Source: Candidatus Methanomethylicia archaeon (GTDB taxonomy: Archaea > Thermoproteota > Methanomethylicia > Culexarchaeales > Culexarchaeaceae). Taken from it: a stretch of 64,000 bases of DNA. Position numbers and translations under genes: made by a program. The notes beneath the pieces were generated by a model. That model did no database searches. It had not been told where the DNA came from and was given only the letters and a program-made list of their open reading frames with translations. Location of the stretch: positions 532,297 through 596,296 of the forward strand of contig JAVYVS010000001.1 of NCBI GenBank assembly GCA_038727515.1, written 5' to 3'. Positions 4,554-38,675 of the stretch are shown here, in pieces; positions within the stretch are counted from its first letter, which is position 1, and the number at the start of each line of letters is the position of its first letter.

Positions 4554-5774
4554 TTAATGTTGAGCTTTACCCTTTCTCTCTAAAAGTTCTTTTTTCGCTT
4601 CTTCAATCAATTGCTTATTTAAGATTAAATCTAAACCTGTTAAAGCAAGTAGTTTAATCCCTGTTATTAATCCCATATGTCCACTTTCAGATCCAGCTGC
4701 TTTAGCAAATTCTATTGAATGACCTGGAGTACCGCGGGGGACAATGGCAACATTAATTTCTAAGGATGGGACTACATGGCTTACATTACCAAAATCTGTT
4801 GAACCAACATCTTCAACACTCATAATCTCTTCAAGAGAGGGAGGTTTAATATTGATAAAATTGAAGTTTTCACATGCAACTTTAATTAAAGTTAGGTTTG
4901 GTATAAAATTGGCGTATGTATTAGCAGTTTTTGTAAATTTATATTTAGCTCCAGTTTGTAGTGCTGCTCCTTCAGCGCATTTCTTAATTTTCTCAACAAC
5001 CTCCATTAAGTAATTCATATCTTCAGCTCTAGCATAAAATCTACCACAACTATATTCTGGAATTATATTTGGAGATACACCTCCATGCTCAATTATACCA
5101 TGAATTAAAGTACCCTTCAATAAATGTTGCCTTAAAGAATTTATTGAAACAAAAGTTAATATTAAAGCTTCAAGAGCATTTATACCTTTATGTGGAGAAG
5201 AAGCTGCATGTGCAGCTTTACCATAGAATTCAATTTTAAAAGCTTCTCTTGCAAGTGATTTGTATCTAAGAGAATATCTATCAGAGGGATGTATCATTAA
5301 TGCTACATCAGATTTAGAAATTTCATTTAACATCAAAACTTTCCCACCAGCATTATCTACAGCACCTTCTTCAGCAGGTGTACCAAAAACAATTATTTCA
5401 CAATTCAAATTCTCTTCACAAGCAATTTTACTTAATGCTAAACCAGCGCCTAAAGCTGCAGTCCCAATAATATTATGCCCACATGCATGACCAAGACCGG
5501 GAAGTGCATCATATTCTGCTAGAAATGCAATTCTTGGACCATCAACACCACAAATACGCCTCGCTTTAAATGAAGTTTCCAGATTAGAAATACCACGTTC
5601 AACTTCAAATCCATACTCCTCCAATTTATCTGACAAAAGTTTTGATGCAAAAAATTCTTTATATCCAAGTTCTGGATTCCTATGAATTGCATCACTAATC
5701 TTAATCATCTCATCAGATATTTCATCAACAAAATTTACTAAACGTTTTTTAAGTGTATACATTTTAAACACCAT
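4554..5774 (-). CDS. M20 family amidohydrolase/dipeptidase (ACY1L2/PM20D2-like)
   Basis: HRNPELG, EYDALPGLGHACGHN, TPAEEG, GKAAHA, GSTDFGNVS. Confidence 0.9.
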   Translation of the reverse strand: MVFKMYTLKKRLVNFVDEISDEMIKISDAIHRNPELGYKEFFASKLLSDKLEEYGFEVERGISNLETSFKARRICGVDGPRIAFLAEYDALPGLGHACGHNIIGTAALGAGLALSKIACEENLNCEIIVFGTPAEEGAVDNAGGKVLMLNEISKSDVALMIHPSDRYSLRYKSLAREAFKIEFYGKAAHAASSPHKGINALEALILTFVSINSLRQHLLKGTLIHGIIEHGGVSPNIIPEYSCGRFYARAEDMNYLMEVVEKIKKCAEGAALQTGAKYKFTKTANTYANFIPNLTLIKVACENFNFINIKPPSLEEIMSVEDVGSTDFGNVSHVVPSLEINVAIVPRGTPGHSIEFAKAAGSESGHMGLITGIKLLALTGLDLILNKQLIEEAKKELLERKGKAQH

Positions 5775-15634: not shown

Positions 15635-17609
15635 AAAGATATTCCATAAACTGTTTTCAATAGATGAAGCTCTTAAATCAATTGAAGAAAACATTGAAAT
15701 AAAACCTATAGGAATAGAGGAAGTGGATTTAAAAGATGCTGTAGGGAGAATTTTAGCTGAAGATATAATTGCAGATATAGATTTACCACCATTTGATAGA
15801 GCGGCAATGGATGGATATGCAGTAAAAGCAGAAGATACTTATAAAGCAAATGAAGAAGAACCTGTAAAACTTAGGGTTATTGGAAAGATTGAATCTGGTG
15901 AAGAACCAATATTGGAATTAGAATCGGGACAAGCAATTGAGATATCTACAGGTGCACCAATACCATTTGGAGCTAATGCAGTGGTAATGGTGGAATATAC
16001 ACATAGAGAAAATGATCATGTAATGATTTATAAACCTGTAACTATAGGGGAGAATATTGTACAATCTGGCTCAGATTTAATGATTGGAGAAACAATACTT
16101 AGATCTGGAGAAAAGCTTACTAGAAGAGAAATAGGTGTATTAGCAGCACTTGGAATATCTAGAGTTAAAGTTTATAAGAAACCAAGAGTAGCAGTAATAT
16201 CCACCGGAAATGAACTTATAAAACCTGGAGAGAGAGTTCAACCATATAAAGTGTATGATGTTAATACATATAGTATATCAAGTGCTATTATAGAGAGTGG
16301 TGGAGAACCAATAATTATTGGAGTTGTAAGAGATTGTGAAAGAGATATTAAAAGTAAGATTGTAGAAGCATTGGAGAAATCAGATATTGTATTAATTTCT
16401 GGGGGGACTTCAGCTGGAGTTGGAGATTTAGTTTATAGAGTTTTAAATGATATAGGTAAACCTGGAATAATAGTACATGGGTTAAAGATTAAACCTGGAA
16501 AACCAACGGTAATAGCAATTGCAAATGGTAAATTAATTGTAGGATTACCTGGATGGCCTGTTTCAGCATTAATGATATATGGTTTAATAATTGAACCTAT
16601 CTTATCTAAAATGATTGGTATAGGGAAGATTAACCATAAAGAGATAAACGTAAAGATTGCTAGAAGAGTTAAATGTGAAAGAGGAAGGGATAATCTAATA
16701 CCAGTGAGCATAATAATTGACGATGAAGGTAAATTCATTGGATACCCATTGATGGAACATAGTGGAGCAATAGCTACCTTAAAAAGAGCCGATGGATACT
16801 TTATAGCGAAAGAAAATAGAGAATTTATAGAAGAAGGAGAGGAGGTTAAAGTTAAACTCTTCTCAGAAATGATTGATATACCAGATGCAACAATAATTGG
16901 AAGTCACTGTCCAGCATTAGAAGAAATTACTAAAATATTAGGGAAAATGGGATATAAGATAAAAACAATATCATCAGGATCCATGGATGGTTTAATTTCA
17001 ATAATAAATGGTGAAGCAGACATAGCTGGAATACATATATTAGATGAAAAAACCATGAAATACAATATTCCAATACTTGAAGAAATGAAATTAAAAAATG
17101 CAGTATTAGTAAAGGGGTATAGTAGAATACAAGGGCTAATAATTTCAAAGGGAAATGAAAAGAATATAAAGGGTTTTGAAGATCTATTGAGGAGTGATAT
17201 AAGGTTTATAAATAGGAATAAGGGTTCTGGGACAAGAATATTCATAGATTATATGTTAAAGAAAGTAGCTAAAGAAAGAGGTTTAGAATTTGAAGAAATT
17301 AAGAAGAAGATTAAAGGATATTATATTGAAGCAAAAACGCATTCATCCATAGCTTCAGCAATAAAACTTTCAAAGGCAGATGTAGGTGTAGGAATAAAAA
17401 CTGTAGCAGTAAGATATGATCTAGGATTTATACCATTAACAATAGAAGAGTACGACTTTATAATTAAAGAGAAAAGCCTGAATAAGAATGTTATAAAAGA
17501 TTTCATAAAAGTTTTAAAAAGTGAAGACTTTAAAAGAATATTGAAATCACTTGGCATGGAACCCTCAAAGAATACTGGAGAGATAATTTGGGGTGTAAAA
17601 AGTGAATGA
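15624..17609 (+). CDS. moeA: MoeA fused to a C-terminal periplasmic-binding-protein-like (PBP) domain
   Basis: MoeA motifs (PPFDRAAMDGYAV, SGGTSAG, KPGKP, LPGWPVS), then GSHC, GSMDGL, DIAGIH, FINRNKGSGTR, EEYDF. Confidence 0.92.
   Translation: MKIRKIFHKLFSIDEALKSIEENIEIKPIGIEEVDLKDAVGRILAEDIIADIDLPPFDRAAMDGYAVKAEDTYKANEEEPVKLRVIGKIESGEEPILELESGQAIEISTGAPIPFGANAVVMVEYTHRENDHVMIYKPVTIGENIVQSGSDLMIGETILRSGEKLTRREIGVLAALGISRVKVYKKPRVAVISTGNELIKPGERVQPYKVYDVNTYSISSAIIESGGEPIIIGVVRDCERDIKSKIVEALEKSDIVLISGGTSAGVGDLVYRVLNDIGKPGIIVHGLKIKPGKPTVIAIANGKLIVGLPGWPVSALMIYGLIIEPILSKMIGIGKINHKEINVKIARRVKCERGRDNLIPVSIIIDDEGKFIGYPLMEHSGAIATLKRADGYFIAKENREFIEEGEEVKVKLFSEMIDIPDATIIGSHCPALEEITKILGKMGYKIKTISSGSMDGLISIINGEADIAGIHILDEKTMKYNIPILEEMKLKNAVLVKGYSRIQGLIISKGNEKNIKGFEDLLRSDIRFINRNKGSGTRIFIDYMLKKVAKERGLEFEEIKKKIKGYYIEAKTHSSIASAIKLSKADVGVGIKTVAVRYDLGFIPLTIEEYDFIIKEKSLNKNVIKDFIKVLKSEDFKRILKSLGMEPSKNTGEIIWGVKSE
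15784..15838. repeat. 55-bp exact repeat, copy 2 (in moeA2)
   Basis: Identical to 14538-14592. Confidence 0.9.
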
Positions 17610-18273
17610 AATAAAAATAATCGCTATAACCGATGTCCATGGAAGATTAAATCAAACTTTAAAGATAGCTGAAATATCAAAGCATAAAGATGTAGATGCA
17701 ATAATAGTTTCAGGGGATTTATCAAGATATAAGTCTATTGAAGAAGCTAAAGAAGTGCTTGAAATCCTAAGATCTAGTGGAAGAAGAATTTTCTATATAC
17801 CGGGAAATATGGATGACCCAAAAATATGTAGTGAAATACTTATAGAAAATGTAGAGTGTGTACATGAAAAGAAAATTGGATTTAAGGGTTATACCATAAT
17901 TGGAGTTGGTGGAGCTTTAATTGGGCCTTTTAATACCCCATTTGAATTAAGTGAAGAACAGTTTCTAGAAATATTTGGAAAGTTATTGAACGAAAACTTA
18001 AAGAATAATGTAATACTCGTAACACACAATCCACCATATAATACAAATGCTGATAAAACAAGTTTCAACGAACATATTGGAAGCAAAAGTATAAGATTAA
18101 TCATAGAAAAAATGGAACCAATATTAAATGTTTGTGGACATGTGCATGAAGCTAGAAGTATAGATAAAATTGATGGAACAATAATAGTTAACCCAGGACC
18201 ATTAATGTATGGTTACTATGCGGAAATAATAGTTGGAGAAAATGTTGAAGCTAAACTACTTAAACTTCCCTAG
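17602..18273 (+). CDS. Calcineurin-like metallophosphoesterase
   Basis: TDVHG, SGDL, PGNMD, THNPP, CGHVHE, VNPG. Confidence 0.9.
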   Translation: MNEIKIIAITDVHGRLNQTLKIAEISKHKDVDAIIVSGDLSRYKSIEEAKEVLEILRSSGRRIFYIPGNMDDPKICSEILIENVECVHEKKIGFKGYTIIGVGGALIGPFNTPFELSEEQFLEIFGKLLNENLKNNVILVTHNPPYNTNADKTSFNEHIGSKSIRLIIEKMEPILNVCGHVHEARSIDKIDGTIIVNPGPLMYGYYAEIIVGENVEAKLLKLP

Positions 18274-19550
18274 AAAATTTCATGGGAAAATAAATCCACA
18301 TATGTTTCTCTTCTTCTAGCTAAATAGGTTTTGCCCTCATGGAAAATAACTATGGCAGCTCTAGGTCTACTATTATAATTACTTGACATGGAAAAACCAT
18401 AAGCACCAGTATTCATTATTGCTAATATATCCCCTGGATTAACCTTATTAAGTTTAACATTAAAACCAAATACATCTGAACTTTCACATATAGGACCAGC
18501 AACATTATATTCATATAGTTCTTCATTGGAAGATAAATTGAGTATTGGGTGAGTTGCTCCATAAAGTGCAGGTCTAATTAAATCGTTCATTCCAGCATCC
18601 ACTAAAACCCATTTAAATCCATAATCCTCTTTAACATAGTTAACCCTAGTTAAAAGTATACCGGAATTACCAACAATAAATCTTCCAGGTTCAAATATTA
18701 TAAGAGGATTATCAATAAAGAATTCATGTGGTGGATCAATTAATTTACGAATTACTTCACAATATTCATTTAGTGGAAATATTCTTTCATCTTTTGAATA
18801 TGGTATTCCAAATCCTCCACCAAGATCAATGATTTCCAATTTAATACCAAACATTTCATATAATCTACTACAGAAATTTAGAATTTCATTTACAGCTATT
18901 CTATAAGGTTCAATATCGAAGATTTGTGATCCTAGATGTATATGAATACCGGAAACATGAATATTATCTAGTTTTAAGGCAGTTTCATAAGCTTTAAAGG
19001 CATTGTAAATACTTAAACCGAATTTATGTATTCTAGCTCCAGTACCTATATGAGCATGAGTTTTAACTGGAATATCAAAATTCACTCTAACACCAATAGA
19101 AGTTTTAACATTCAATTCACTGGAAAACTTATTTATCCAATATAGTTCATCGATGTTCTCAATGTTTATCAATAAAATGCGTGAAGAAACAGCATCAAAG
19201 ATTTCATTTGGAGATTTAGATACACCATCAAAAACGATTTTATTTGATGGTACATTGACGAGTTTAGCTGCATAAAGTTCACCGCTAGAAACAACTTCAG
19301 CTCCTGCACCCAATTCATTCAAAAGTTTAAGTAATGCTAGACATGTATTAGCCTTATAAGCATAGCATATCAAATTCCTCTCCCAAATCTTATCTAAAGA
19401 ATTCTTTAAAGTAATGTAATTGTGTTTAACCATGTCAAGATCAATGAGGTATAATGGAGTTCCATACTCTTCAACTAAAGCTTTAAAATTTAAACCTCTA
19501 TCCTTTAAATTTTCAATATATCTTTGAAAAACAAAAGGATCATTATACAT
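18270..19550 (-). CDS. lysA: Diaminopimelate decarboxylase
   Basis: YGTPLY, YAYKAN (PLP Lys), THAHIGTG..HKFG, HIHLGSQI, DLGGGFG, EPGRFIV, GPICESSD, GAYGFSMSSNYNSRPR. Confidence 0.88.
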   Translation of the reverse strand: MYNDPFVFQRYIENLKDRGLNFKALVEEYGTPLYLIDLDMVKHNYITLKNSLDKIWERNLICYAYKANTCLALLKLLNELGAGAEVVSSGELYAAKLVNVPSNKIVFDGVSKSPNEIFDAVSSRILLINIENIDELYWINKFSSELNVKTSIGVRVNFDIPVKTHAHIGTGARIHKFGLSIYNAFKAYETALKLDNIHVSGIHIHLGSQIFDIEPYRIAVNEILNFCSRLYEMFGIKLEIIDLGGGFGIPYSKDERIFPLNEYCEVIRKLIDPPHEFFIDNPLIIFEPGRFIVGNSGILLTRVNYVKEDYGFKWVLVDAGMNDLIRPALYGATHPILNLSSNEELYEYNVAGPICESSDVFGFNVKLNKVNPGDILAIMNTGAYGFSMSSNYNSRPRAAIVIFHEGKTYLARRRETYVDLFSHEIF

Positions 19551-19557
19551 TGATGAT

Positions 19558-20397
19558 TCATCTCAACAATGTTGAAGCTAGATATATCATAACCCGTAAA
19601 ACTTTAAAACATTTTAAGTAATCATCTGAAACATATTCAACAGTTGTTGCATCAATCCTCTTAACATCAGGTATCATTGTAGCTAAATCAGCCATACCAG
19701 AATTCATAAAGGTTAAATTCAATTTTATGGGAGGTTTAAATTTAAATGGTGAAAACTTTGATAAGTTTTCCAGAGCACTTTTAGCAGCAGATTTTATTAA
19801 TTCACGAGCTTCACTTGGATGAATACATAAAGCAGAATATCTACCAAAAGCTTCCTTAACCTTAACAGTCATAACATTTCCAAGAAGACTTTTAGCTTCC
19901 TCCACAACAGTTGAATCTCCAGTAACTAAAACTACTGGGACATTATAGTATCCAGCTATACCAGCATTAATACCAACTTCACCAACACTTAAACCATTTA
20001 TCGAAATATTGCGAACTACAGAACCTGAAATTGTATGATCAAGGATTGCATTAATACTACCAAATTTAGCATGATAACCAATGAAGAATGCAGCATCAAA
20101 AGTTTCATTTATACCAGCCATCATTGATAAAACCTTTGGAGAACCAGTTATCAATTTAGCCTTTGGATGTAAATCCTCAATAATTATGTTTCTCATAGAA
20201 CCATGAGAATCATTAACTATAATTTCATCAGCACCACCAATAATTGCACCTTCAATAGCAGCATTAACTTCAGAAGTCATAAGTTTACATGCACGTTCAT
20301 ACTCTCTACTACCAGGATTTGTTTGATCGCTATGAACTACACCACAAATACCTTCCATATCTGCAGAAATGAAAACCTTAAATCCCAAAAAATTCAC
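19558..20397 (-). CDS. dppA: D-aminopeptidase, peptidase family M55 (DppA)
   Basis: FISADMEG, NDSHG, IGYHA, LDHT, GEVGIN, VTGD. Confidence 0.92.
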   Translation of the reverse strand: MNFLGFKVFISADMEGICGVVHSDQTNPGSREYERACKLMTSEVNAAIEGAIIGGADEIIVNDSHGSMRNIIIEDLHPKAKLITGSPKVLSMMAGINETFDAAFFIGYHAKFGSINAILDHTISGSVVRNISINGLSVGEVGINAGIAGYYNVPVVLVTGDSTVVEEAKSLLGNVMTVKVKEAFGRYSALCIHPSEARELIKSAAKSALENLSKFSPFKFKPPIKLNLTFMNSGMADLATMIPDVKRIDATTVEYVSDDYLKCFKVLRVMIYLASTLLR

Positions 20398-20458
20398 CAG
20401 TAAATAATATTAAAAAACAAAATTTAAAGGTGAAGATAAAGTTTAATGATATTAAAAA

Positions 20459-21613
20459 TCACCATTCAAATAATTCTACGTTAGCTCTTGGAACTATAAC
20501 TCTCCTACCATCTTGTAATTCTATTTCAACAATTCTCACTGGAGATTCTGTTTCAACAGGTTGAAGCTCCACTGGGAGATTTACAACTTTTGCCAATTGT
20601 CCAAAGTATGGAGCTCTAATAACTCTAACCTTAGTTCCAGGCTTCATTCCTCCAACATATATTTCAGATTCCAATGGAAGAGATAATGGATCTACATCAC
20701 TACGTGGAATAACTATTTCAGGTCTTATAACACCAGCTCTAATTTGTGTTGCACCATCAAAGCAAGCTAATTTACCTTCATTAGCTTTAAACATATTGAA
20801 AGTTCTAGAAGCCATAGGTATTTCACCAAATCCCTCTGTTATAATTACCGTCATAGAAATATCTTCCCTACCAGTAATTGCAACTCCTATCTCATAACCT
20901 AAGAAATCCTTAATATCCTTAAAATCAATTCCACCAACGACAATTCCAGCAGTACCAACTTCCATAGCTTTCTTAAGAACTTCAGCTGAAGCATATGAAC
21001 CTCCAACAACTAGTTTACCCTTCCACTTAGGTGAAACCATATCAACAGTCAATTTATCCTTTGGAGAGTCAACAGCAACAAACACTTCTCCATGTCTTTC
21101 ACCGCCAATACCGAAAATACCCTCAATAAATGTGGATGCACATTCTATAACTACACCTTCCTTTGGAATGATTTCAGTGACAATACCAGGTATGTATGCA
21201 TCAAGTTCAACTGGTATCGGAGGTTCTCTAACAATTATCTGACCAGTAACTTCTGAGATATGTTCAATATAACCATCTGTTGGAGATTTAACTTCAGATT
21301 TCAATAATCCAAAGAAGGCTCTATAACTTGCAATAATGTCACCTTTACTAACTTTATCTCCAATTTTCTTCTTTACATATAATGGTAATTCCTCAGGTTC
21401 AATACCTAAAATGGCAGCTGCACTAACAATATGTATGTCTCCAGGAAGACTTGTTCTAGCTACAACATCACTATAATTAACTTTATCACCCTTATTCACA
21501 AGAACTTCGCCTGGAAGAGGCAGTCTCCTAACTTTTCTAAATCTAAATAACTCAGAAATTCTAAGACCAGGGGTGTATGCATGTGCAGATTGAGAAACTT
21601 TCTCAGAGGACAT
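20459..21613 (-). CDS. Uncharacterised protein of GlmL-associated clusters (sandwich-barrel hybrid motifs and C-terminal KOW-like domain)
   Basis: AHAYTPGL N-terminus, GEVLVNKGDKV and KKIGDKVSKGDIIA barrel-hybrid motifs, GIFGIGGE, ITEGFG, TQIRAGVIRPE, GTKVRVIRAPYFG, VPRANVE. GGGGTGA SD; 13 bp downstream of the glmL-like gene. Confidence 0.75.
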   Translation of the reverse strand: MSSEKVSQSAHAYTPGLRISELFRFRKVRRLPLPGEVLVNKGDKVNYSDVVARTSLPGDIHIVSAAAILGIEPEELPLYVKKKIGDKVSKGDIIASYRAFFGLLKSEVKSPTDGYIEHISEVTGQIIVREPPIPVELDAYIPGIVTEIIPKEGVVIECASTFIEGIFGIGGERHGEVFVAVDSPKDKLTVDMVSPKWKGKLVVGGSYASAEVLKKAMEVGTAGIVVGGIDFKDIKDFLGYEIGVAITGREDISMTVIITEGFGEIPMASRTFNMFKANEGKLACFDGATQIRAGVIRPEIVIPRSDVDPLSLPLESEIYVGGMKPGTKVRVIRAPYFGQLAKVVNLPVELQPVETESPVRIVEIELQDGRRVIVPRANVELFEW

Positions 21614-21626
21614 ATTATTTCACCCC

Positions 21627-23486
21627 CTAAATTTTCTCTTTTTCTAAAATACTCTCTGGATAAGCATTTAAAGCTTTAAACCATTTAATCAATGCATTCC
21701 TACGTTGATTGAAATCTTCTGGGAGTTTTAGAGGTCTCCCTCTAGCATCAATAACTATTCCAGCAGCTCCACCCCAAACAGTAGCCTCCCTCTTCTTGCC
21801 TGGACCCATACCCACATCAAAATCTCCAGTGGGTTCTATAACTACATTAGCAGTTTCATCATCCTTTAGTGGTATTCTATCTATATCACCATAATTGACC
21901 ACTTTTTCCACAGTTCTTCCATCAGGCATAGTTGCAGTAACTTTAACAGCTGGACCGGTGGATTTTGAGTGTCCATCAAGAGCTATAACCGTACCAAGTT
22001 TAACTATACAATCTCTTTCAAAGATTTCCATAGCAGCCTTTGGATGAACAGTTGAGAGAACTCCTAGATGTGGCATCATGAATATACTATCACACATAAG
22101 TCTAGTAACACCTTTAGGTTGGAAGGCATCTATCAATATTAATGCAGCTTGTTGTCTACGTGGAGTATGGGATAGAAGACCTCCAGTACCACCAATTAAT
22201 TGTATATTCATCATATTAATGTATGTTTCAGTCTCCATAGATTGTTCAAATATATCTGCAATTGTCCTCTTCCTTTGAATTCCTCTTAAACCTCTAGCTA
22301 GAAGTTTATGATGTTCAAATCCAAGTCTAATAGCTTCACGTGCTACAGCATGTTCAACCATTAAATCATCTAATGTTTGAGGTAATGTAGTTGGTCTAAT
22401 CATCTTATTAGCCAACCTATTTCTAACCTCTCTTTCATCAATTTCAAATGGAATCCACCTCATAATATTGGTTACACCAGCTTCCTTCAAAACATTCGTA
22501 ATACTGTAACTCATACCAAGATTTGCACTAACAGTCCTAACAAATTTACCATCATATACGGAGTAAACATTAGTTGTAGCACCACCTAAACCCACACCCA
22601 AAACATTTATCTTCCACATTCTTGCAATAGTCCTAAACATCATACCTTCACCAGCAGGAGTTGGCATAACTGGAACCATAACCCATTCAGTCAATTTATG
22701 ATAACCAGGGGCATGAGCCATAACATGCTCCATAAACAATCTATGAATAGCATCTCTAGCAGGTTCAACAACTTCAACTTCTAAAACAGGTCTTAAATTC
22801 TCTACAATAGTTAGATCAAAAGTTTCCCCTAAAGTCTTTTTAATATGCTCTCTAGCATCCTTATTACCAGCATAAACAATTGGAAGCTTATATCCCAATC
22901 CAAATCTAGGTTTAGGTTCAGCAGCCTTTATAAGCTCAGCCATTTCAACAACATGTTTAATGGTTCCACCATCAGTTCCACCAGCTAATAGAATCATATC
23001 AGGCCTCAAGAAACGCATACGCTCAATCTTCTTATGTGGAGGTCTACCATCATCAATAGCCATAACATCCATAACTATTGCTCCAGCTCCAAGAGCAGCT
23101 CTCTCAGCACTTTCCGCAGTCATAGTTTTAACTACGCCTGCAACCATCATTTGCAATCCACCGCCAGCACTACTTGTTGAAACATACAAATCTACACCAA
23201 CATTGTTTCCCTGATATGGTATTATGAGCCCAGAGCCATCAGGTTTCAGTAGTTTGTGACCAGTTAATTCTTCAACTTCAGTTATAGCATTGCGTAAACC
23301 CATGGTAACATCTTCAAAAGGTTTTTCCACAGTGGTTGGAGCTTCACCAGCAACTATAAATCTCCAAACACCATCAACCTTTTTAAAGAGCCTAGCCTTT
23401 GTAGTCGTACTACCCACATCAGTTGCTAAAGCAACTTGCATACGTTCAACATCAAATTGAATAACTTTTTCACTCATCACACACAC
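21627..23486 (-). CDS. Glutamate mutase L (GlmL/MutL)-like ASKHA-fold ATPase
   Basis: TDVGSTTTK, EAPTTVE, SSAGGGL, TAESAERAALGAGA, PDMILLAGGTDGG, YAGN, MPTP, GGATTNV, RTVSANLG, IDARGRP. Confidence 0.85.
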   Translation of the reverse strand: MCVMSEKVIQFDVERMQVALATDVGSTTTKARLFKKVDGVWRFIVAGEAPTTVEKPFEDVTMGLRNAITEVEELTGHKLLKPDGSGLIIPYQGNNVGVDLYVSTSSAGGGLQMMVAGVVKTMTAESAERAALGAGAIVMDVMAIDDGRPPHKKIERMRFLRPDMILLAGGTDGGTIKHVVEMAELIKAAEPKPRFGLGYKLPIVYAGNKDAREHIKKTLGETFDLTIVENLRPVLEVEVVEPARDAIHRLFMEHVMAHAPGYHKLTEWVMVPVMPTPAGEGMMFRTIARMWKINVLGVGLGGATTNVYSVYDGKFVRTVSANLGMSYSITNVLKEAGVTNIMRWIPFEIDEREVRNRLANKMIRPTTLPQTLDDLMVEHAVAREAIRLGFEHHKLLARGLRGIQRKRTIADIFEQSMETETYINMMNIQLIGGTGGLLSHTPRRQQAALILIDAFQPKGVTRLMCDSIFMMPHLGVLSTVHPKAAMEIFERDCIVKLGTVIALDGHSKSTGPAVKVTATMPDGRTVEKVVNYGDIDRIPLKDDETANVVIEPTGDFDVGMGPGKKREATVWGGAAGIVIDARGRPLKLPEDFNQRRNALIKWFKALNAYPESILEKEKI

Positions 23487-23558
23487 CTAATTAACTTAAA
23501 CAACATTATAGTTATCAGCAATTTAAACTTTACCATTTAATCAACGGAATTTAATAAA

Positions 23559-24005
23559 TTATTTGCTTTTAACTTCAGAAGTTGATTCTACAGTTTCACT
23601 CTTAGTACTTGAGGTGCTGGAAAAACTTAATCTTATATATGTATTTTGAGCACACTCATTAATATTAGATCTCAACAATAGTATTTTAATAGTCCAAACT
23701 ACAGCTATACCAGTACTAAGTATTATCAGATTAAACTCTAATAGTGGTAATATGACGATTAATGCAAATAATAATGCAGAAACACTTAATCTATAACCAA
23801 ATCTTAAAAAGTCAACTTCATCTATAACATATATTTTCGCTTCACCAAAAATATCGCTATATATTAAATCGCAACCCCTCTCCTTAGAGATTTTTGTGTT
23901 AAGCCCTCTACGCCTCATTTCTTCAGCAAAACTCTTAAGAAATTCACTTCTCATACCGCCAATTTCTGGAAAAAGTCTTTCATTAATAGATATGCTAACC
24001 GACAT
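23559..24005 (-). CDS. Hypothetical membrane protein (two TM helices)
   Basis: 148-aa ORF with a central hydrophobic hairpin and a Ser/Thr-rich tail; co-oriented with its neighbours. Confidence 0.6.
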   Translation of the reverse strand: MSVSISINERLFPEIGGMRSEFLKSFAEEMRRRGLNTKISKERGCDLIYSDIFGEAKIYVIDEVDFLRFGYRLSVSALLFALIVILPLLEFNLIILSTGIAVVWTIKILLLRSNINECAQNTYIRLSFSSTSSTKSETVESTSEVKSK

Positions 24006-24058
24006 TTAAATCCAAATAGTTTAAAGAATAAAGGATATAATAACGTTTGTGGTTTAAA

Positions 24059-25873
24059 TTACGTTCTAGAAACTTCAAAATTAATATTTAAACCAGAATC
24101 CAAAGCATTCTTTAAATATTTACCAACATCACTGGATAAATTAAAAACAAGTCTAGCTCTCTTATCACATCTATAAGACCCAAAATACTTTCCATCAATA
24201 TATAAATTCACGTTTAACTTAGCATATTCACGATCAAAATAGAATATTAAACTACGTTTAGTCTCCCTATAAGAATAATCAATCTTAGAAGATTCAGTAA
24301 ATTCATCCCTCGCTTGAATCTTAATCCTAACATTAAACTTTCTTTCAAGTTCACTTATAATATTACCATTTCTACCAATTATATGTGGAATAACATTCTT
24401 CTTAACTTTAACAATAACAAAATTATCAGATAAAACCTCCAATTCAGCATTAGAATCAAATCTTCTAATGAATTTCATTAAATCTTTAAAATCCCTTTCA
24501 GATCTTTTAACCTCAAGATCACGTTTAACTGGGAATATGACCGTCTCCTCACCAAAAGTATAGATTTCATATTCAACTTCATTAGTCTCAAAATCCCTAA
24601 CTTCAACAACAGGTCTAGCTAAATCTTCATCCATCATACCATGAGGAACTTTAACCACCAAATCTAATACGTAAACCTTCTTAATTAAACCATCTTTAAT
24701 AAATATGACAGTATCAATAACTTGAGGGATGACGCCAAGATCAATTCTACCAATAAATCTATGTATGGCATCTACGGGAGAAGAAGAATGTACAACACCA
24801 ATCATACCGACACCAGCAAGTCTCATATCAACAAAAACCTGGAAATCTTCAGTTTTCCTCAATTCATCAAAAACAGTGTAATCAGGTCGAACAAGCAATA
24901 GTATTTCAGCAGTTTTATAAAACTCTCCTTCCAAAGGAGCGTATTGCGTAATTTCATCTCTAACCTGAAGATCCCTTGGAGCCTCCATAGTCTTCACTAT
25001 AGCATTCTTACTAGTACGGTAAAATTCAGCTAGAGCAGAGGCAAATGTGGATTTACCAGCACCTGGAGGGCCACAGATAAGTATACCCTCAGCTCTTTCA
25101 GCAAGCCTCCTCTTCAATTTATCTGATAAAGCATAATCATCAATAGAAACTTTAACTATAGGTCTAACGGCAGTAATCTCTAAACCATCGGAAAATGGTG
25201 GTCTAGCTATAGCAATCCTATATTCACCTAGTTGAATAACCATGGCACCACGTCTAACAATCTCTATGAAGGCATTACCATCAGAGTGGCAACGCTTTAA
25301 AATATCTCTAATTATATATTCAAGTTCAGCTCTACTACAAGGTTCTTCTCTAATTTTAACAAGCTCCCATCTACCAGGTTTACCACGTTTAGCATAAGGT
25401 GGAACACCCTCCTTCAAATGGATACTCATAGTATCACTAGTAAAAAAGTTTTCAAGTTTAATATGAGCATAACTTTCCTCAGCACCAATAAATCTAACTT
25501 TAATCCCCTCAGCTTCAGAAACAAGAGATTGAACATAATCCATAGTATATAGGGTAGCATCATAATCTTTAGCTACATTTCTAATTAGAGCATCAATCCT
25601 ACCCATCTCAGCCATCTTAATATCATCAACAGAAGCAATTTCACCAACAAACTTTATAATAATATTTCTATCAGTACAAAGCTTCCTCAACCTAATTAGT
25701 TCATCTAAACCCTTAAAACCACGTTCACTACCACTAGAAGCTTGTGCTTGCAATTCATCTAAAACAACCCTTGGAACTATAATTTCCAAATCCCTTAAAT
25801 CTTCATCTAAAATAATTTTCGAAAGTTTACCTTCCACTAGAATACTAGTATCCGGAACTATCCTATTTACCAT
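24059..25873 (-). CDS. PINA ATPase (PIN domain + VirB11-like ATPase + KH domain)
   Basis: IVPDTSI (PIN), GPPGAGKST, LLVRPDYTVFDELR, DMRLAGVGMIGVVH, KH motif IIGRNG. Start moved to the ATG at 25873 after an AGGTG SD. Confidence 0.9.
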   Translation of the reverse strand: MVNRIVPDTSILVEGKLSKIILDEDLRDLEIIVPRVVLDELQAQASSGSERGFKGLDELIRLRKLCTDRNIIIKFVGEIASVDDIKMAEMGRIDALIRNVAKDYDATLYTMDYVQSLVSEAEGIKVRFIGAEESYAHIKLENFFTSDTMSIHLKEGVPPYAKRGKPGRWELVKIREEPCSRAELEYIIRDILKRCHSDGNAFIEIVRRGAMVIQLGEYRIAIARPPFSDGLEITAVRPIVKVSIDDYALSDKLKRRLAERAEGILICGPPGAGKSTFASALAEFYRTSKNAIVKTMEAPRDLQVRDEITQYAPLEGEFYKTAEILLLVRPDYTVFDELRKTEDFQVFVDMRLAGVGMIGVVHSSSPVDAIHRFIGRIDLGVIPQVIDTVIFIKDGLIKKVYVLDLVVKVPHGMMDEDLARPVVEVRDFETNEVEYEIYTFGEETVIFPVKRDLEVKRSERDFKDLMKFIRRFDSNAELEVLSDNFVIVKVKKNVIPHIIGRNGNIISELERKFNVRIKIQARDEFTESSKIDYSYRETKRSLIFYFDREYAKLNVNLYIDGKYFGSYRCDKRARLVFNLSSDVGKYLKNALDSGLNINFEVSRT

Positions 25874-27761: not shown

Positions 27762-28399
27762 AGAGAATAGTAATTCTTGGACCCCCTGGTTCTGGTAAGG
27801 GGACGCAAGCAAAATTAATCTCTGAAAAATATGGAGTACCACATATATCAACTGGAGATGTATTAAGGGAAAACATATCTAAAAAAACAAAAATTGGGGA
27901 GATCGTTAGGGAATATATAGAGAGAGGAGAATTAGTTCCAGATGAAATAATAATTAAAATAACGATAGATAAGCTAATTGAAGCAGTAAACGTTAGTGGA
28001 GGATACATATTGGATGGATATCCAAGAACTATACCTCAAGCAGAAGCATTAGAGAAATCAATTATAAAACCAGAAATAGTAATAGATATAAAACTTAGTG
28101 AAGATGAATGCGTTAGAAGATTAACAAATAGAAGATACTGCCCCAATTGTGGAGAAGTATATAATATGTTACTTAAACCACCAAGAGAAAACGAGAAATG
28201 CGATAAATGTAATGTGAAACTTTTACAGAGGGAAGATGATAGAGAAGATGTTATAAGAAGGAGATTTAAAGAATATTACAATAAAACGAAGCCAGTAATG
28301 GATTATTATAGAAGTATTGGAAAATTAGTTGAAGTTGATGGTGGTGGAAGTATAGAAGAAATTCATAAAAGAATATTGGAGATATTAAAGTTTACTTAA
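27758..28399 (+). CDS. adk: Adenylate kinase, bacterial type with Zn-binding LID
   Basis: GPPGSGKGTQA, HISTGD, GELVPD, LDGYPRT, CPNC..CDKC LID, QREDD. The true start ATG at 27758 overlaps the pit stop (ATGA). Confidence 0.93.
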   Translation: MKRIVILGPPGSGKGTQAKLISEKYGVPHISTGDVLRENISKKTKIGEIVREYIERGELVPDEIIIKITIDKLIEAVNVSGGYILDGYPRTIPQAEALEKSIIKPEIVIDIKLSEDECVRRLTNRRYCPNCGEVYNMLLKPPRENEKCDKCNVKLLQREDDREDVIRRRFKEYYNKTKPVMDYYRSIGKLVEVDGGGSIEEIHKRILEILKFT

Positions 28400-29620
28400 T
28401 ACTTCATCAATATCAATTGAAACTTCAATTGGTTTTTCAACTACACTTAAAGTTGTTGAAACATCCTTTAAACCAAAACCAGATATTACACATACAATTA
28501 AGTCATTGGCATCAATAACATCAAATTCTCTAAGTTTCTTAACTAAAGCTAATGGAGCTGCAGCTGCAGGTTCAGCATATATACCCTCAAATTTAGCAAT
28601 AGCCTTATATGCCTCTATAATCTCATCATCAGATACAGCTTCAACAATACCATTACACTCCTTCAAAGCTCTATAAAGTAGAGGCCAACCAGCAGGATTT
28701 CCAACAGCAATAGCACTAGCAATAGTTTTAGGTTCTTTAACTACTTCAATAACTTCACTATTAGCTTTAAAAGCTTTAACCATAGGTGCACATCCTTCAG
28801 CTTGAACACATGCCATTCTAGGCATACCATTAATCCAATCAAAATCAACCATTTCTTTAAATCCCTTAAAAGCACCTATAGCAGCTGTCCCCATACCAAC
28901 AGATTGAATATACCAATCTGGAGCCTTCCATCCAAGTTGCTCACAAATTTCATATGCAAGAGTCTTTTTACCCTCCTGTCTAATGGGATTAATAACTCCA
29001 CCATTATATATCCAACCAAGCTTTTCAGCAACAATCCTAGCAATCCTACTAGCATCATCAAAAGTTCCATTCACAAGGAAAACTCTACTACCATAAATCA
29101 TTATTGAAGCAATCTTCTCCCTAGAAGCATATTTAGGTGCAAAAACTATACTTTCAATATTAGCCAAAGCACAATATGCAGCTTGAGCTACACCAGCATT
29201 CCCCGTTGAGAAACCAACCATACCAGGAGCTTTCAATTCAAGCGCTCTACTAACAGCTGCAGAAGAACCCCTATCCTTAAATGATCCAGTGGGATTAAGA
29301 TACTCAAGCTTTAAAAATAGATTCTTTAAACCAAGAATAGATCCTAAACGCCTACTCCTAATAAGTGGAGTCCAACCTTCACCCATACTAACAATACAAG
29401 AATAATTTTCAATAGGAATAAATTCCCTATAACGCCACATATTAAAATCTCTAATGGAAATTTTAGCTTTACTAACAATAGACTTAATATAATCATAATT
29501 TAATTGAAATTCAAGTATAGAACCACAATTTAAACAAAAATTAATGTTTAAATAGGGATCAAATTCAGAGCCGCATTTAACGCATTTCAATGATTTAATT
29601 TTGCTAACCATAACCACCAC
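28385..29620 (-). CDS. thrC: Threonine synthase (fold-type II PLP enzyme) with N-terminal Zn ribbon
   Basis: CVKC..CLNC, MWRY, GEGWTP, NPTGSFKDRG, STGN, EGKKT, EPAAA, SGFGLK. Confidence 0.8.
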   Translation of the reverse strand: MVVMVSKIKSLKCVKCGSEFDPYLNINFCLNCGSILEFQLNYDYIKSIVSKAKISIRDFNMWRYREFIPIENYSCIVSMGEGWTPLIRSRRLGSILGLKNLFLKLEYLNPTGSFKDRGSSAAVSRALELKAPGMVGFSTGNAGVAQAAYCALANIESIVFAPKYASREKIASIMIYGSRVFLVNGTFDDASRIARIVAEKLGWIYNGGVINPIRQEGKKTLAYEICEQLGWKAPDWYIQSVGMGTAAIGAFKGFKEMVDFDWINGMPRMACVQAEGCAPMVKAFKANSEVIEVVKEPKTIASAIAVGNPAGWPLLYRALKECNGIVEAVSDDEIIEAYKAIAKFEGIYAEPAAAAPLALVKKLREFDVIDANDLIVCVISGFGLKDVSTTLSVVEKPIEVSIDIDEVLSKL

Positions 29621-35410: not shown

Positions 35411-36610
35411 TTGAGGAAGAAGTTTTATGATGGATATAAATCCTTCCAATATTTAGAAGCAGGGAAAGATTATAGAGTTTTTAAATTGGCGAAGGAGATC
35501 GATAGAGTTCCATCTAAAGATATTGAATTAAGTAAAAGTGAAGAAGAAAGAGTTTATGAAATATTGGAGAAATACATAGTTATATCACTACATGATCACT
35601 CAACAATTTTCCCAGAGAATCCTGAAGAAATACCAGCATATATTAGATGTGGAAGAATGTGGACTGGATTTGAGGGTTTAGTTTTATCGGGTGTAGATGT
35701 GATTTTTGAAGGTTTATTCAATGGTATAGGTCCAATAACTTCTAAAGATCCATGGAATTGGGAGAATATAGTGTATCAGATTGGAATGTTTACTTCAGAT
35801 ATTGATCATCAAAATACATTATTCATAGTTAGAAGATTTTCAGATATTGAAAAAGCTTACAGAGAGGGTAAAATAGGTATTGTAATACATATAGAGGGAA
35901 CACCTAGAATAGGGGATGAAATAGATAGAATAGATGTTCTTTACGGTCTTGGAGTTAGATGTATGGGTATAACATATAGTAGAGGTAATGAATTTGGAAG
36001 TGGACTTGCAGATAAAGTAGATAGAGGACTTACAGATCTCGGATATAAATTGGTTGAAAGAATGAATAAAATTGGGATGGCAATAGATTTAGCACATGTA
36101 GGAGATAAAACCTCTCTTGATATTATTGAAGCAAGTAAAAAGCCAGTATTCATTACACATGCAGGTGCAAGAACTCTATGGCCAACTAAAAGAATGAAAC
36201 CTGATGAAGTTATACAAGCACTAGCTGAAAAGGGAGGCGTATTTGGAGTAGAAGCTTCCCCACATACAACATTAACATTGAATGATAGAAAACATACAAT
36301 AGAAACCGTGATGAGACATTTTCAATACATAGAAAAACTTGTGGGAATAGATTACGTAGCCTTTGGACCAGATACACTATTTGGTGATCATGTAGCATTA
36401 CATAAAGTATTTTCAAGGGAATTATCATTAACTGAAACTAGACCTAGAGAACTAGAATATACAGAAGTAGAATATGTTGATGGTTTGGAAAATCCATCAC
36501 AATTTAAGAATATCATTAGATGGCTTGTTAAAAATGGTTATAGTGATGAAGAAATAGGAAAAGTAATTGGTGGGAATGTAATTAGGGTTTTAAGGGAAGT
36601 ATGGTATTAA
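35411..36610 (+). CDS. Membrane/renal-type dipeptidase (peptidase M19)
   Basis: SLHDH, GVRCMGITYS, GLTDLG, IDLAHVG, ITHAG, FGPD, VIGGNVIRV. Confidence 0.88.
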   Translation: MRKKFYDGYKSFQYLEAGKDYRVFKLAKEIDRVPSKDIELSKSEEERVYEILEKYIVISLHDHSTIFPENPEEIPAYIRCGRMWTGFEGLVLSGVDVIFEGLFNGIGPITSKDPWNWENIVYQIGMFTSDIDHQNTLFIVRRFSDIEKAYREGKIGIVIHIEGTPRIGDEIDRIDVLYGLGVRCMGITYSRGNEFGSGLADKVDRGLTDLGYKLVERMNKIGMAIDLAHVGDKTSLDIIEASKKPVFITHAGARTLWPTKRMKPDEVIQALAEKGGVFGVEASPHTTLTLNDRKHTIETVMRHFQYIEKLVGIDYVAFGPDTLFGDHVALHKVFSRELSLTETRPRELEYTEVEYVDGLENPSQFKNIIRWLVKNGYSDEEIGKVIGGNVIRVLREVWY

Positions 36611-37562: not shown

Positions 37563-38675
37563 TTAGGGTAATTCAAGAAACTTTAAACCTCTATCATCAA
37601 TAAGCCGTTTAAATACTTCGAAATACTTTAAGTTTATCCCAATAAATTCCGGTGGCAATAATCCTTTATCAACTATTATATTGTCGATAACCATTTTAGC
37701 AATTGAAGATTGAGTGAAACCAGTAGTCTTTGCCATAGCAGTAATATTGAGATTAAAATCATAACATAAATCCATAATGAACTTCCTATGAATATTGCTA
37801 TTAGAAAATGCTTCAATATACATTACCACACGGTCTGGAACATTTCTAACCATAATTTTATTGAGAATTTTTGCAGTTAAAATATTCATTTTAATTTTAA
37901 CACCATCAATATTTAAAGAATCATAACTAAGTAAACCAATCTTTTTAAGCGATCTCATAATCTCCAAATGACCTTTATATCTTAATGTATACTCTATCAA
38001 TTCACTAGACCCATTAAAGGTTTTCAACATTGTTCTAATACCATCAGAAACAAAGTATTCAAATACCCCAACCCCTAGAATTTCTATTTCTCCAGTATTC
38101 GATAATGGATCTAAATTAACTTCAGACCCATTTAATATAGCTCTCGCAGGCCTAATATATTCATCAATTAAATCCTCAACAGACCATGTTAAAACTAAAC
38201 CTAATGGAACCGTTGAATCTAGAGATATCCCCCCAACATAAATCCTACCAATATTTAATCCACCATACATTGAATGGAAATACCCTAAAAGAATATTGGT
38301 TAAACCAGGTGCAAAACCAGCATCAATAATTAAAACAACATTTTTCTCACGAGCAATAGGATCCAATGACCACGGGGACTCTGGAAAATAAGAAACATCA
38401 ACAACATTAATGCCAAGATTAAGTAGATTATTTAAAACTCTATATGCTATAGCTCCAGGTAATGCTGTAATGGCAACATTAAATCCCTTCAATCTATCAA
38501 TTAATAGAGGATTTGAAACATCGAGATTTAAAGTTTCCAAACCAAATTCTCTGGAGGCAATCTTCAATTTCTCATTATCAACATCAACAACCAGAGGGTG
38601 AATATTAGACTTAACAAGATCGAAGGCTACAGCTCTACCAATATTACCAAACCCGATTAAAACTACATCACTCAT
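37563..38675 (-). CDS. Saccharopine dehydrogenase family, probable L-lysine 6-dehydrogenase
   Basis: IGFGNIG, VVDVS, DAGFAPGLTN, TWSVEDLIDEYIRPAR, SDGIRTM, YTLRYKGH, TAMAKTTG. Confidence 0.82.
   Translation of the reverse strand: MSDVVLIGFGNIGRAVAFDLVKSNIHPLVVDVDNEKLKIASREFGLETLNLDVSNPLLIDRLKGFNVAITALPGAIAYRVLNNLLNLGINVVDVSYFPESPWSLDPIAREKNVVLIIDAGFAPGLTNILLGYFHSMYGGLNIGRIYVGGISLDSTVPLGLVLTWSVEDLIDEYIRPARAILNGSEVNLDPLSNTGEIEILGVGVFEYFVSDGIRTMLKTFNGSSELIEYTLRYKGHLEIMRSLKKIGLLSYDSLNIDGVKIKMNILTAKILNKIMVRNVPDRVVMYIEAFSNSNIHRKFIMDLCYDFNLNITAMAKTTGFTQSSIAKMVIDNIIVDKGLLPPEFIGINLKYFEVFKRLIDDRGLKFLELP

Follow-up and report, generated by a model that had tools for sequence, protein, structure and literature searches.

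A dppA-lysA gene pair in Culexarchaeales with a possible role in salvage of diaminopimelate from bacterial murein

The DNA analyzed in this work, referred to below as the window, is a 64,000-nucleotide stretch (G000:C1:532297-596296) of the genome of a Candidatus Methanomethylicia archaeon from the order Culexarchaeales (G000; 1.586 Mb in 12 contigs, 2.9% contamination, 32.9% GC). Its minus strand carries two adjacent genes, dppA, coding for a D-aminopeptidase of the M55 family, and lysA, coding for diaminopimelate (DAP) decarboxylase, and the subject of this report is the possible role of this pair in feeding on bacterial murein. A preliminary description of the window had placed dppA 7 bp upstream of lysA on the same strand; both open reading frames (ORFs) were found where it put them, and their products match PF04951 and TIGR01048, respectively. 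The stretch recurs in hot-spring metagenomes from several studies. The nearest named relatives of DppA and LysA belong to 'archaeon YNP-WB-062', 'archaeon GBS-70-058' and Ca. Methanomethylicia metagenome-assembled genomes (MAGs); 'archaeon GBS-70-058' is Ca. Culexarchaeum nevadense, whose DppA and LysA are 84% and 68% identical to those of the window. Proteins of the window (55 ORFs) were scanned with Pfam. The genomes compared were 12 of the order, among them members of the family of the window and of a sister family, 62 of the class, and a sample of 201 from the phylum Thermoproteota, each at least 85% complete, in which lysA was counted at E <= 1e-60 and asd at E <= 1e-40.

The features of the locus are listed in Table 1. 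The spacer that separates the two genes leaves no room for a separate promoter, and dppA and lysA are therefore expected to be co-transcribed. Since lysA shares its last 4 nt with a convergent metallophosphoesterase gene, the unit would consist of two genes. Upstream of dppA there is a TATA-box-like element, TTTAAATT, the spacing of which would agree with an archaeal promoter whose leader is short or missing. We infer that dppA and lysA form a two-gene operon with its own promoter. No Rfam family matched window positions 16000-25000 at E <= 0.1, and short repeats in this region, considered as RNA elements, look like chance. A 13-nt word, AATGTTGAAGCTA (plus strand), is found at 18241-18253, shortly beyond lysA on its 3' side, and again at 19568-19580, within dppA close to its 3' end, with a looser third copy at 20555-20573; all of these may be chance in AT-rich DNA.

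LysA matches both domains of ornithine/DAP/arginine decarboxylases (PF02784 and PF00278) and passed the NCBIfam equivalog model TIGR01048 with 457.6 bits (cut-off 297.9). Its closest solved relative is the M. jannaschii DAP decarboxylase (1TUF/1TWI, 339.6 bits), and its AYKAN, HxHxGSQ, GGGxG, EPGR, CESSD and NYNxRxR stretches, which we take to be the pyridoxal phosphate (PLP)-lysine and substrate-binding motifs, align with 1TUF. The gene is present in a single copy in G000. LysA is predicted to be a DAP decarboxylase that converts meso-DAP to L-lysine. One could argue instead that lysA is a decaying relic, or that its product is unconnected with murein and acts on a non-DAP substrate, for instance a polyamine precursor or a D-amino acid. 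The fold-type III clade includes D-ornithine/D-lysine decarboxylase, with LysA scoring 205.1 bits in the DokD model and ~168 bits with 6N2H/8D2Y, and a gene of the saccharopine-dehydrogenase family, which is also the family of carboxyspermidine dehydrogenases, is located 18 kb away. However, the only model passed is that of lysA: the DokD cut-off is 700, and the nspC and speA models are failed as well (27.4 bits vs 409 and 78.5 vs 624). The DAP decarboxylase motifs are intact in all 11 orthologues of the order, diverged to 51-69% identity, which argues for selection; DapF is retained alongside LysA, and the lysA contexts in the genomes G203, G074 and G151 (see below) point to murein. We consider a relic or an unrelated substrate very improbable.

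The distribution of lysine biosynthesis genes bears directly on the role of LysA. In the class, lysA exceeded the cut-off in 11 of 62 genomes, all from the order (11/12, the missing genome being 45% complete), and dapF was found in nine, again all from the order (9/12). DapF of G000 scored 239.2 bits against a cut-off of 114.65 and keeps both Cys motifs. The asd gene had no match in G000 and was found in one of the 12 genomes of the order (G011, contig C10 only) with a model that finds it in 14 of 14 control genomes. Aspartate kinase is represented in G000 only by domain fragments of at most 45.3 bits (cut-off 208.7), and the only genome of the order with matches over the cut-off is G011 (contigs C10 and C12). 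The best dapB match in G000 (46.1 bits vs 122) is a 2,4-diaminopentanoate-dehydrogenase-like protein; over the cut-off, dapB was found in a single genome of the class, on G011:C10. The preliminary description had seen no dapA, dapB or dapF near the pair, and indeed none of the 55 window ORFs contains DHDPS, DapB or DAP-epimerase domains. The 7314-bp contig C10 of G011 (L114) carries an asd-dapA-dapB-lysC-lysA-dapF-aminotransferase operon; G011 has 8% contamination, LysA of this operon is only 35% identical to that of the window, and tblastn of its Asd fragment, DapB and LysC against G000 gave no matches. We treat it as a binning contaminant or a separate acquisition.

The preliminary description had pointed to the LysW/aminoadipate route, by which many TACK archaea make lysine; this route turned out to be absent from the lineage. 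No match to LysW was obtained in G000 (15 candidates scored), where LysX_arch reached at best 150.9 bits (cut-off 275.6). LysW is found in 0/6 genomes of the window's family, while the sister family gave only partial 27-residue matches in long ORFs; there was one weak match in G003, and full-length matches were found in small ORFs of the other families of the class. As judged by these searches, which did not include DapD, DapE and Ddh, Culexarchaeales have neither lysine route yet keep the last two enzymes of the DAP pathway. A complete DAP pathway elsewhere in the genome, along with a non-conserved dppA linkage, was looked for and not found. Since the upstream DAP genes are absent, LysA could not end a de novo pathway, and DAP would have to be imported; the absence of the LysW route from the lineage strengthens the case for salvage.

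LysA and DapF might nevertheless end a cryptic de novo pathway with non-orthologous upstream enzymes (DHDPS paralogues, the Ord-like protein and class-I aminotransferases). G000 has two paralogues of the DHDPS family with scores right at the DapA cut-off (207.8 and 204.2 bits vs 206), and M. jannaschii DHDPS is among the best solved relatives of these proteins, although searches of solved structures did not separate DapA from 2-keto-3-deoxygluconate-type aldolase for either of them. They carry ...PKFTG and ...PSTTG, whereas DapA of the complete G011:C10 operon has ...PGRTG, with an Arg that presumably binds aspartate semialdehyde. In 9/12 genomes of the order there is a 349-aa protein whose N-terminus is DapB-like, but it scores 318.9 bits (cut-off 400) as a 2,4-diaminopentanoate dehydrogenase (Ord) and also occurs in the LysW-using families. 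Aminotransferases reach 248-299 bits with the DapL model TIGR03540; in G000 the best scores are 248 bits vs 593 for TIGR03540 and 105 vs 364.7 for TIGR03542; these models are passed by only one and two of 14 control genomes, respectively. DapF is more typical of a route through LL-DAP, and a threonine synthase gene is present in the window. On the other hand, none of the candidate genes lies near lysA or dapF, and neither the lack of asd in 11 of the 12 genomes nor that of an aspartate kinase over the cut-off fits such a pathway. We regard it as highly unlikely. As a separate observation, the Ord-like protein together with a GlmL/'Or-4'-like protein of the window (21627-23486) hints at a pathway of the ornithine-fermentation type.

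Genes of murein-sugar catabolism were found on another contig of G000 by tblastn with proteins of the distant genome G203 and named with the help of NCBIfam and Pfam. They form a cluster (C4:57175-69582; L175:5176-17583), the GC content of which, 32.9%, is equal to that of the genome. The cluster codes for AnmK, a NagZ-type glycoside hydrolase, NamZ, MurQ, a MurK-like sugar kinase, an amidohydrolase and a peptidase of the Pab87 type. Bacterial murein is the only known source of the substrates of AnmK, NamZ and MurQ. Both junctions in the kinase-murQ-namZ run are overlaps of 8 nt, and the murK-murQ-namZ order is the same in G000 and G203. The nearest relatives of MurQ are mostly from archaeal MAGs (Methanomethylicia, Bathyarchaeota, Thermoprotei, Thermofilum and 'archaeon GB-1867-005'). 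Other loci of the genome code for an amino-acid racemase (TIGR00035, 278.9 bits) and for a second protein of the Asp/Glu-racemase family, and there are five M14-domain matches, none of which was assigned as MpaA. Since the organism apparently can make neither DAP nor lysine and carries murein-sugar catabolic genes, we hold with good confidence that LysA, together with DapF, is a salvage end-point at which imported meso- or LL-DAP is converted to lysine. The proposal of the preliminary description that LysA salvages murein-derived DAP is thus supported by the genomic data.

Table 1. Positions of the features discussed in the text (window coordinates unless a contig of G000 is given)
Feature	Position	Strand	Remarks
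dppA, M55 D-aminopeptidase, 'type 1' paralogue, 279 aa	19558..20397	-	GTG start at 20397 or, alternatively, TTG at 20388
lysA, diaminopimelate decarboxylase, 426 aa, second gene of the pair	18270..19550	-	TIGR01048
Spacer, dppA stop codon (TGA) to lysA start codon (ATG), 7 nt	19551..19557	-	Read from sequence
TTTAAATT, TATA-box-like element	20421..20428	-	~28 nt upstream of the dppA start codon; read from sequence
M20-family protein	4554-5774		Pfam: M20 dimerisation domain only; TIGR01891 amidohydrolases, 191.4 bits (cut-off 153.75)
Threonine synthase	28385-29620	-	NF006050, 348.7 bits (cut-off 303)
M19 dipeptidase	35411..36610	+	PF01244, 243.1 bits; possible accessory for L-Xaa-D-Xaa dipeptides
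Saccharopine-dehydrogenase-family protein	37563-38675		Family-level match only
M20-family protein	52255-53463		PF01546 Peptidase_M20
Second M55 paralogue	C1:445121-445915		L019:8065-8928; 36% identical to DppA
AnmK	C4:57175-58371	-	459.7 bits (cut-off 387)
NagZ-type GH3	C4:60108-61688	+	216.3 bits (cut-off 207)
NamZ	C4:61685-62836	-	PF07075, 253.5 bits; PF20732, 182.3 bits
MurQ	C4:62829-63770	-	330.1 bits (cut-off 302)
BadF-type kinase (MurK-like)	C4:63763-64719	-	116.7 bits, under the cut-off of 370
Amidohydrolase	C4:65515-66918	+	Partial matches only
S12 peptidase with Pab87 octamerisation domain	C4:68194-69582	-	PF00144, 206.3 bits; PF13969, 64.5 bits
Ord-like protein	C5:9309-10358		L020:6310-7359

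In the phylum sample, lysA was found in 41 of 201 genomes and asd in 173. Directly beside asd, lysA is located in 13 of the 41 lysA-bearing genomes, and eight of the 41 (G000, G005, G006, G074, G151, G093, G108 and G203) have no asd match. G093 was dropped from consideration as a case of orphan lysA because a dapA-dapB-lysA-dapF operon is present there, which leaves seven genomes, three of them from Culexarchaeales, where lysA is not part of a dap operon and asd has no match; orphan lysA genes thus recur in Thermoproteota. In G203 (99% complete), lysA is located on a 647-kb contig with an archaeal-type seryl-tRNA synthetase and overlaps nagZ, on the same strand, by 11 nt; the two genes are preceded by those of an OPT oligopeptide transporter and a papain-like peptidase, while the opposite strand after nagZ carries a murK-like gene, murQ (336.5 bits vs 302) and namZ, with an AmpH/PBP4B-like gene 2 kb further. 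In G074 and G151, which represent two genera of one family, lysA is convergent with an enolase-superfamily gene, the best NCBIfam match of which is L-Ala-D/L-Glu epimerase (204.5 and 247.8 bits, respectively, under the cut-off of 500). The neighbours of lysA in G108 are uninformative. The G203 and G074/G151 lineages provide independent support for murein-linked salvage by LysA.

A quick maximum-likelihood search was used to build a LysA tree of 47 rows, from which G107 was left out since its gene is cut by a contig end. The 11 Culexarchaeales sequences form one group (SH-aLRT 96). A split with SH-aLRT 95 separates 18 rows, made up of this group, G203, G074, G151 and four rows from asd-bearing genomes, from 29 rows that include all 12 asd-adjacent LysAs and both LysAs of dap operons. 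The tree is unrooted and contains long branches (G203, G074, G063b and G201) and related rows, which limits its weight in favor of salvage.

The first gene of the pair codes for a protein that matches PF04951 (Peptidase_M55) with 361.8 bits (gathering score 25) over model positions 2-263 of 264. It aligns over its full length (196.9 bits) with B. subtilis DppA (1HI9), the product of the first gene of the dpp dipeptide-permease operon, and the SxDMEG, NDSH, GYHA and VGExG stretches of the two proteins match. Residues D13, E15, H65, H109 and E140, presumably the zinc ligands, are invariant in an alignment of 14 M55 sequences and align with SVDMEG, NDSH, GYHA and VGELG of 1HI9. The score with the Bacillus DppA equivalog model NF058634 is 269.5 bits, under the cut-off of 430. 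By these criteria the protein is a member of the M55 family rather than a demonstrated functional equivalent of Bacillus DppA. The second M55 paralogue of G000 adjoins an OCD/mu-crystallin gene, with best matches to the ornithine cyclodeaminase family and archaeal alanine dehydrogenase, and its other neighbours code for a LysO-type exporter, a C26 gamma-glutamyl hydrolase and a major facilitator superfamily (MFS) transporter. In the distant genome G108 (C1; L177), an OCD/mu-crystallin gene is located ~2.7 kb (two genes) from an M55 gene, and another M55 copy of that genome is accompanied by genes for an M19 enzyme, an amino-acid permease, an Ord-like protein and arginine deiminase/ornithine carbamoyltransferase (ADI/OTC).

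Type-1 dppA adjoins lysA in seven of the 12 genomes of the order, five from the window's family (G000 and G004-G007) and two from the sister family (G010 and G013). The gaps between tblastn matches in the six other pairs are ~26-60 nt, and across the two families the paired proteins are 58-85% (DppA) and 53-69% (LysA) identical. The dppA-lysA synteny, which the preliminary description had suggested testing, is therefore real within the order; it does not extend outside it and is lost in four of the 11 lysA loci. In those four genomes (G003, G009, G011 and G012), lysA is located in the same place without dppA, and type-1 M55 is absent from the genome; thus, LysA does not need DppA. The gene that replaces dppA beside lysA in part of the sister family, coding for an AP-endonuclease-2-type TIM-barrel protein on the opposite strand, is unrelated.

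It may be, then, that LysA and DapF salvage imported DAP while dppA is a mere neighbour, coding for a general cytoplasmic aminopeptidase that acts on short peptides with D-Ala or Gly in peptide fermentation. Besides the loss of dppA just described, several observations count against a functional link within the pair. The surrounding 19 kb (Ogg, M48, LamB/YcsF, two MoeA, metallophosphoesterase, lysA-dppA, an unknown gene, GlmL-like, PINA and PhoU) are syntenic across the order; since the genes of this block are functionally unrelated, conservation of dppA-lysA may reflect inheritance only. Among 80 M55 loci in genomes, lysA is adjacent in one, that of Ca. Culexarchaeum nevadense, and in none of the 79 others, which lie outside Culexarchaeales. 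In metagenomes, lysA adjoins four of 37 M55 loci, all with DppA at least 85% identical to that of the window, and none of the 33 loci with DppA identity of 58% or less. Four M55 loci, three from Aminicenantes and one from Nannocystaceae, have a lysA-like gene ~3 kb off; the Aminicenantes arrangement was rejected as an operon since a gene for seryl-tRNA synthetase, on the opposite strand, and one for a DUF72 protein intervene (one locus annotated). Clustering of M55 neighbours revealed no conserved partner, and elsewhere M55 genes are found among those for M3, S9, M20, C26, S51, M28 and M19 peptidases, parts of Dpp/Opp ABC transporters, MFS transporters and amino-acid permeases; alanine racemase is encoded near M55 in three such loci. 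As for transcription, contigs of one metatranscriptome library map within lysA (175 nt) and within dppA (440 nt) at 95% identity or more, which gives a hint that both genes are transcribed, but no contig of this library spans the dppA-lysA junction, and the library may contain DNA; no weight is given to the stretches that it leaves uncovered.

Other data are harder to reconcile with dppA as a bystander. The short spacer in the window and the small gaps in the six other pairs fit a single transcript; the pair has been kept across two families despite the divergence noted above; and both products would act on D-centres typical of murein peptides. In addition, M55 is present in four of the five asd-lacking, lysA-bearing genomes outside Culexarchaeales, as opposed to 11 of 62 genomes of the class, though it is never beside lysA there and the sample is small, with related members. 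We conclude that the dppA-lysA link is probably ancestral to the order and dispensable, and that it is weak evidence of coupling between the two enzymes; a purely incidental neighbourhood is possible, though on the unlikely side.

The reading that we favor, with moderate confidence, includes a functional link of DppA: dppA-lysA would be the peptide/amino-acid end of a scattered peptidoglycan-feeding system in a lysine-auxotrophic, peptide-fermenting archaeon. Wall fragments or free DAP would be imported, and the sugars would be processed by NagZ, NamZ, AnmK, the MurK-like kinase and MurQ, encoded on the other contig. DppA, as a cytoplasmic self-compartmentalising D-aminopeptidase, most likely contributes by trimming short stem-peptide remnants that contain D-Ala, probably along with the Pab87-type peptidase. 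DapF would interconvert LL-DAP and meso-DAP, and LysA would decarboxylate the D-centre of meso-DAP to yield L-lysine. Seen directly in the sequences are the family assignments, the intact catalytic motifs, the lack of LysW and of the upstream DAP genes, the murein-sugar genes and the gene order; from these we infer what DppA acts on, how DAP is taken up and released, that the pair is transcribed together and that the process runs in the direction of lysine supply.

A bolder version, which we consider doubtful, is that Culexarchaeales and at least two other wall-less Thermoproteota lineages are 'murein feeders' that, after the loss of both lysine pathways, obtain lysine and amino sugars from peptidoglycan, with dppA-lysA as a dedicated two-step device. 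In such a device, DppA would remove the D-Ala that blocks the amino group at the D-centre of meso-DAP in cross-link remnants, D-Ala-(D)-meso-DAP. The centre freed in this way is the one that LysA must bind to PLP and decarboxylate, and DapF would rescue LL-DAP, either biological or produced by heat racemisation.

Several findings weigh against a peptidoglycan-feeding system in G000. The preliminary description had called for a search for racemases, epimerases and muropeptide hydrolases. Enzymes that would release DAP from a stem peptide were not found: S66 LD-carboxypeptidase is absent from every one of the 12 genomes of the order, G000 has no NlpC/P60 protein, and neither the epimerase-like genes of G074 and G151 nor the papain-like gene of G203 gave a tblastn match there (MurNAc-L-Ala amidases were not searched for). 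No alanine racemase was found in G000 either. Completeness of the G000 assembly is 93.6%. The threonine synthase gene indicates that some aspartate-family chemistry persists. Finally, a peptide fermenter obtains lysine from peptides anyway, and the selective value of a salvage route is not obvious.

The remaining enzymes of the window include the M19 dipeptidase and two M20-family proteins noted in the preliminary description, all of which were confirmed by matches. M19 enzymes cleave L-D dipeptides, and in the asd-lacking genome G108 an M19 gene is located two genes from an M55 gene; the M19 dipeptidase of the window is a possible part of the dppA-lysA system. What had been described as a lysine-6-dehydrogenase-like enzyme does match the saccharopine-dehydrogenase family, while nothing points to lysine 6-dehydrogenase itself. 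Threonine synthase occurs in an order in which asd and aspartate kinase were not found, which leaves its source of O-phosphohomoserine unexplained. Upstream of dppA, on the same strand (20459-23486), there are two genes coding for a 384-aa protein and a 619-aa protein of the GlmL/MutL family (PF13941). The 384-aa protein has weak RnfC_N/biotin-lipoyl-like and KOW matches and is placed by Atlas in a widespread family. The two proteins are 90% and 95% identical, respectively, between genera whose LysA is only 68% identical, and no link of their genes to dppA-lysA is evident.

To our knowledge, only bacteria make DAP and N-acetylmuramic acid (MurNAc). An archaeon with enzymes for these two compounds but with no route to either of them or to lysine would provide a direct genomic read-out of cross-domain feeding on necromass in hot springs. 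If true, this would explain the persistence of 'biosynthetic' lysA and dapF in broadly auxotrophic archaea. It also calls for caution in metabolic reconstructions of uncultured archaea, where lysA alone is a poor sign of lysine prototrophy, and gives a reason to try peptidoglycan or DAP, as supplements or isotope tracers, in the cultivation of Culexarchaeales, which have no cultured member. The description of Culexarchaeia (main text and two supplementary files) contains no mention of lysine, diaminopimelate, peptidoglycan, muramic acid, MurQ, AnmK or NagZ. A search of the literature, in which subscription journals are poorly covered, for murein use by archaeal DppA, LysA, MurQ or AnmK brought up only the proposal on Pab87 and the study of ciliates discussed below.

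All parts of the proposed system come from known families. Murein recycling in E. coli involves AnmK, MurQ and NagZ with MpaA, LdcA and YcjG, and MurNAc catabolism in B. subtilis relies on murQ...nagZ-namZ. G000 resembles these bacteria in having AnmK, MurQ, NagZ and NamZ, all above cut-offs, and a sugar kinase below its cut-off. It differs in that the products could not be reused for a wall of its own, so that the process would be purely catabolic or salvage, and in that LdcA and NlpC/P60 were not found in G000. Biosynthetic DAP operons, such as those of the 13 genomes with asd-adjacent lysA, G093 and G011:C10, employ the same LysA and DapF families, but there lysA is located beside asd, dapA or dapB.

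Among the peptidases, B. subtilis DppA is a D-stereospecific self-compartmentalising aminopeptidase, as stated in the accessible part of PMC2651629. DppA of the window belongs to the same family, but its gene precedes lysA rather than a Dpp transporter. The same part of that source holds the proposal that Pab87 of Pyrococcus abyssi, a CubicO S12 peptidase, processes D-amino-acid peptides from bacterial muropeptides (PMC2651629). The likeness lies in archaeal D-stereospecific peptidases that act on bacterial wall peptides, and G000 does contain a protein of the Pab87 type; however, Pab87 belongs to a protease family other than M55, and no link to DAP, LysA or murein-sugar genes is made in the portion of that paper available to us (PMC2651629).

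The closest parallels for LysA itself come from outside Archaea. In marine Pseudomonadota, LysA is the key and specific enzyme for the use of exogenous DAP, according to the accessible part of PMC9602339, and there, as proposed here, it turns environmental murein DAP into lysine. Those bacteria have murein of their own, and the evidence given in that part comprises gene deletion and an enzyme assay (PMC9602339), whereas the present case concerns a murein-free archaeon known from its genes alone. Unlike these bacteria, as far as that text describes them, Culexarchaeales lack the upstream genes and have lysA paired with the gene of an M55 peptidase. Anaerobic ciliates, in turn, have laterally acquired lysA, anmK, murQ, NamZ and pbp4b, as reported in the accessible part of PMC13198582, and are likewise wall-less consumers of bacteria with the same murein-degrading genes, lysA included. 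They differ in being eukaryotes that acquired the genes in separate transfers and, as that part presents it, have no operon and list lysA under amino-acid degradation (PMC13198582). What is new in Culexarchaeales is the proposed use of these known parts by wall-less, lysine-auxotrophic archaea and the pairing of M55 with LysA.

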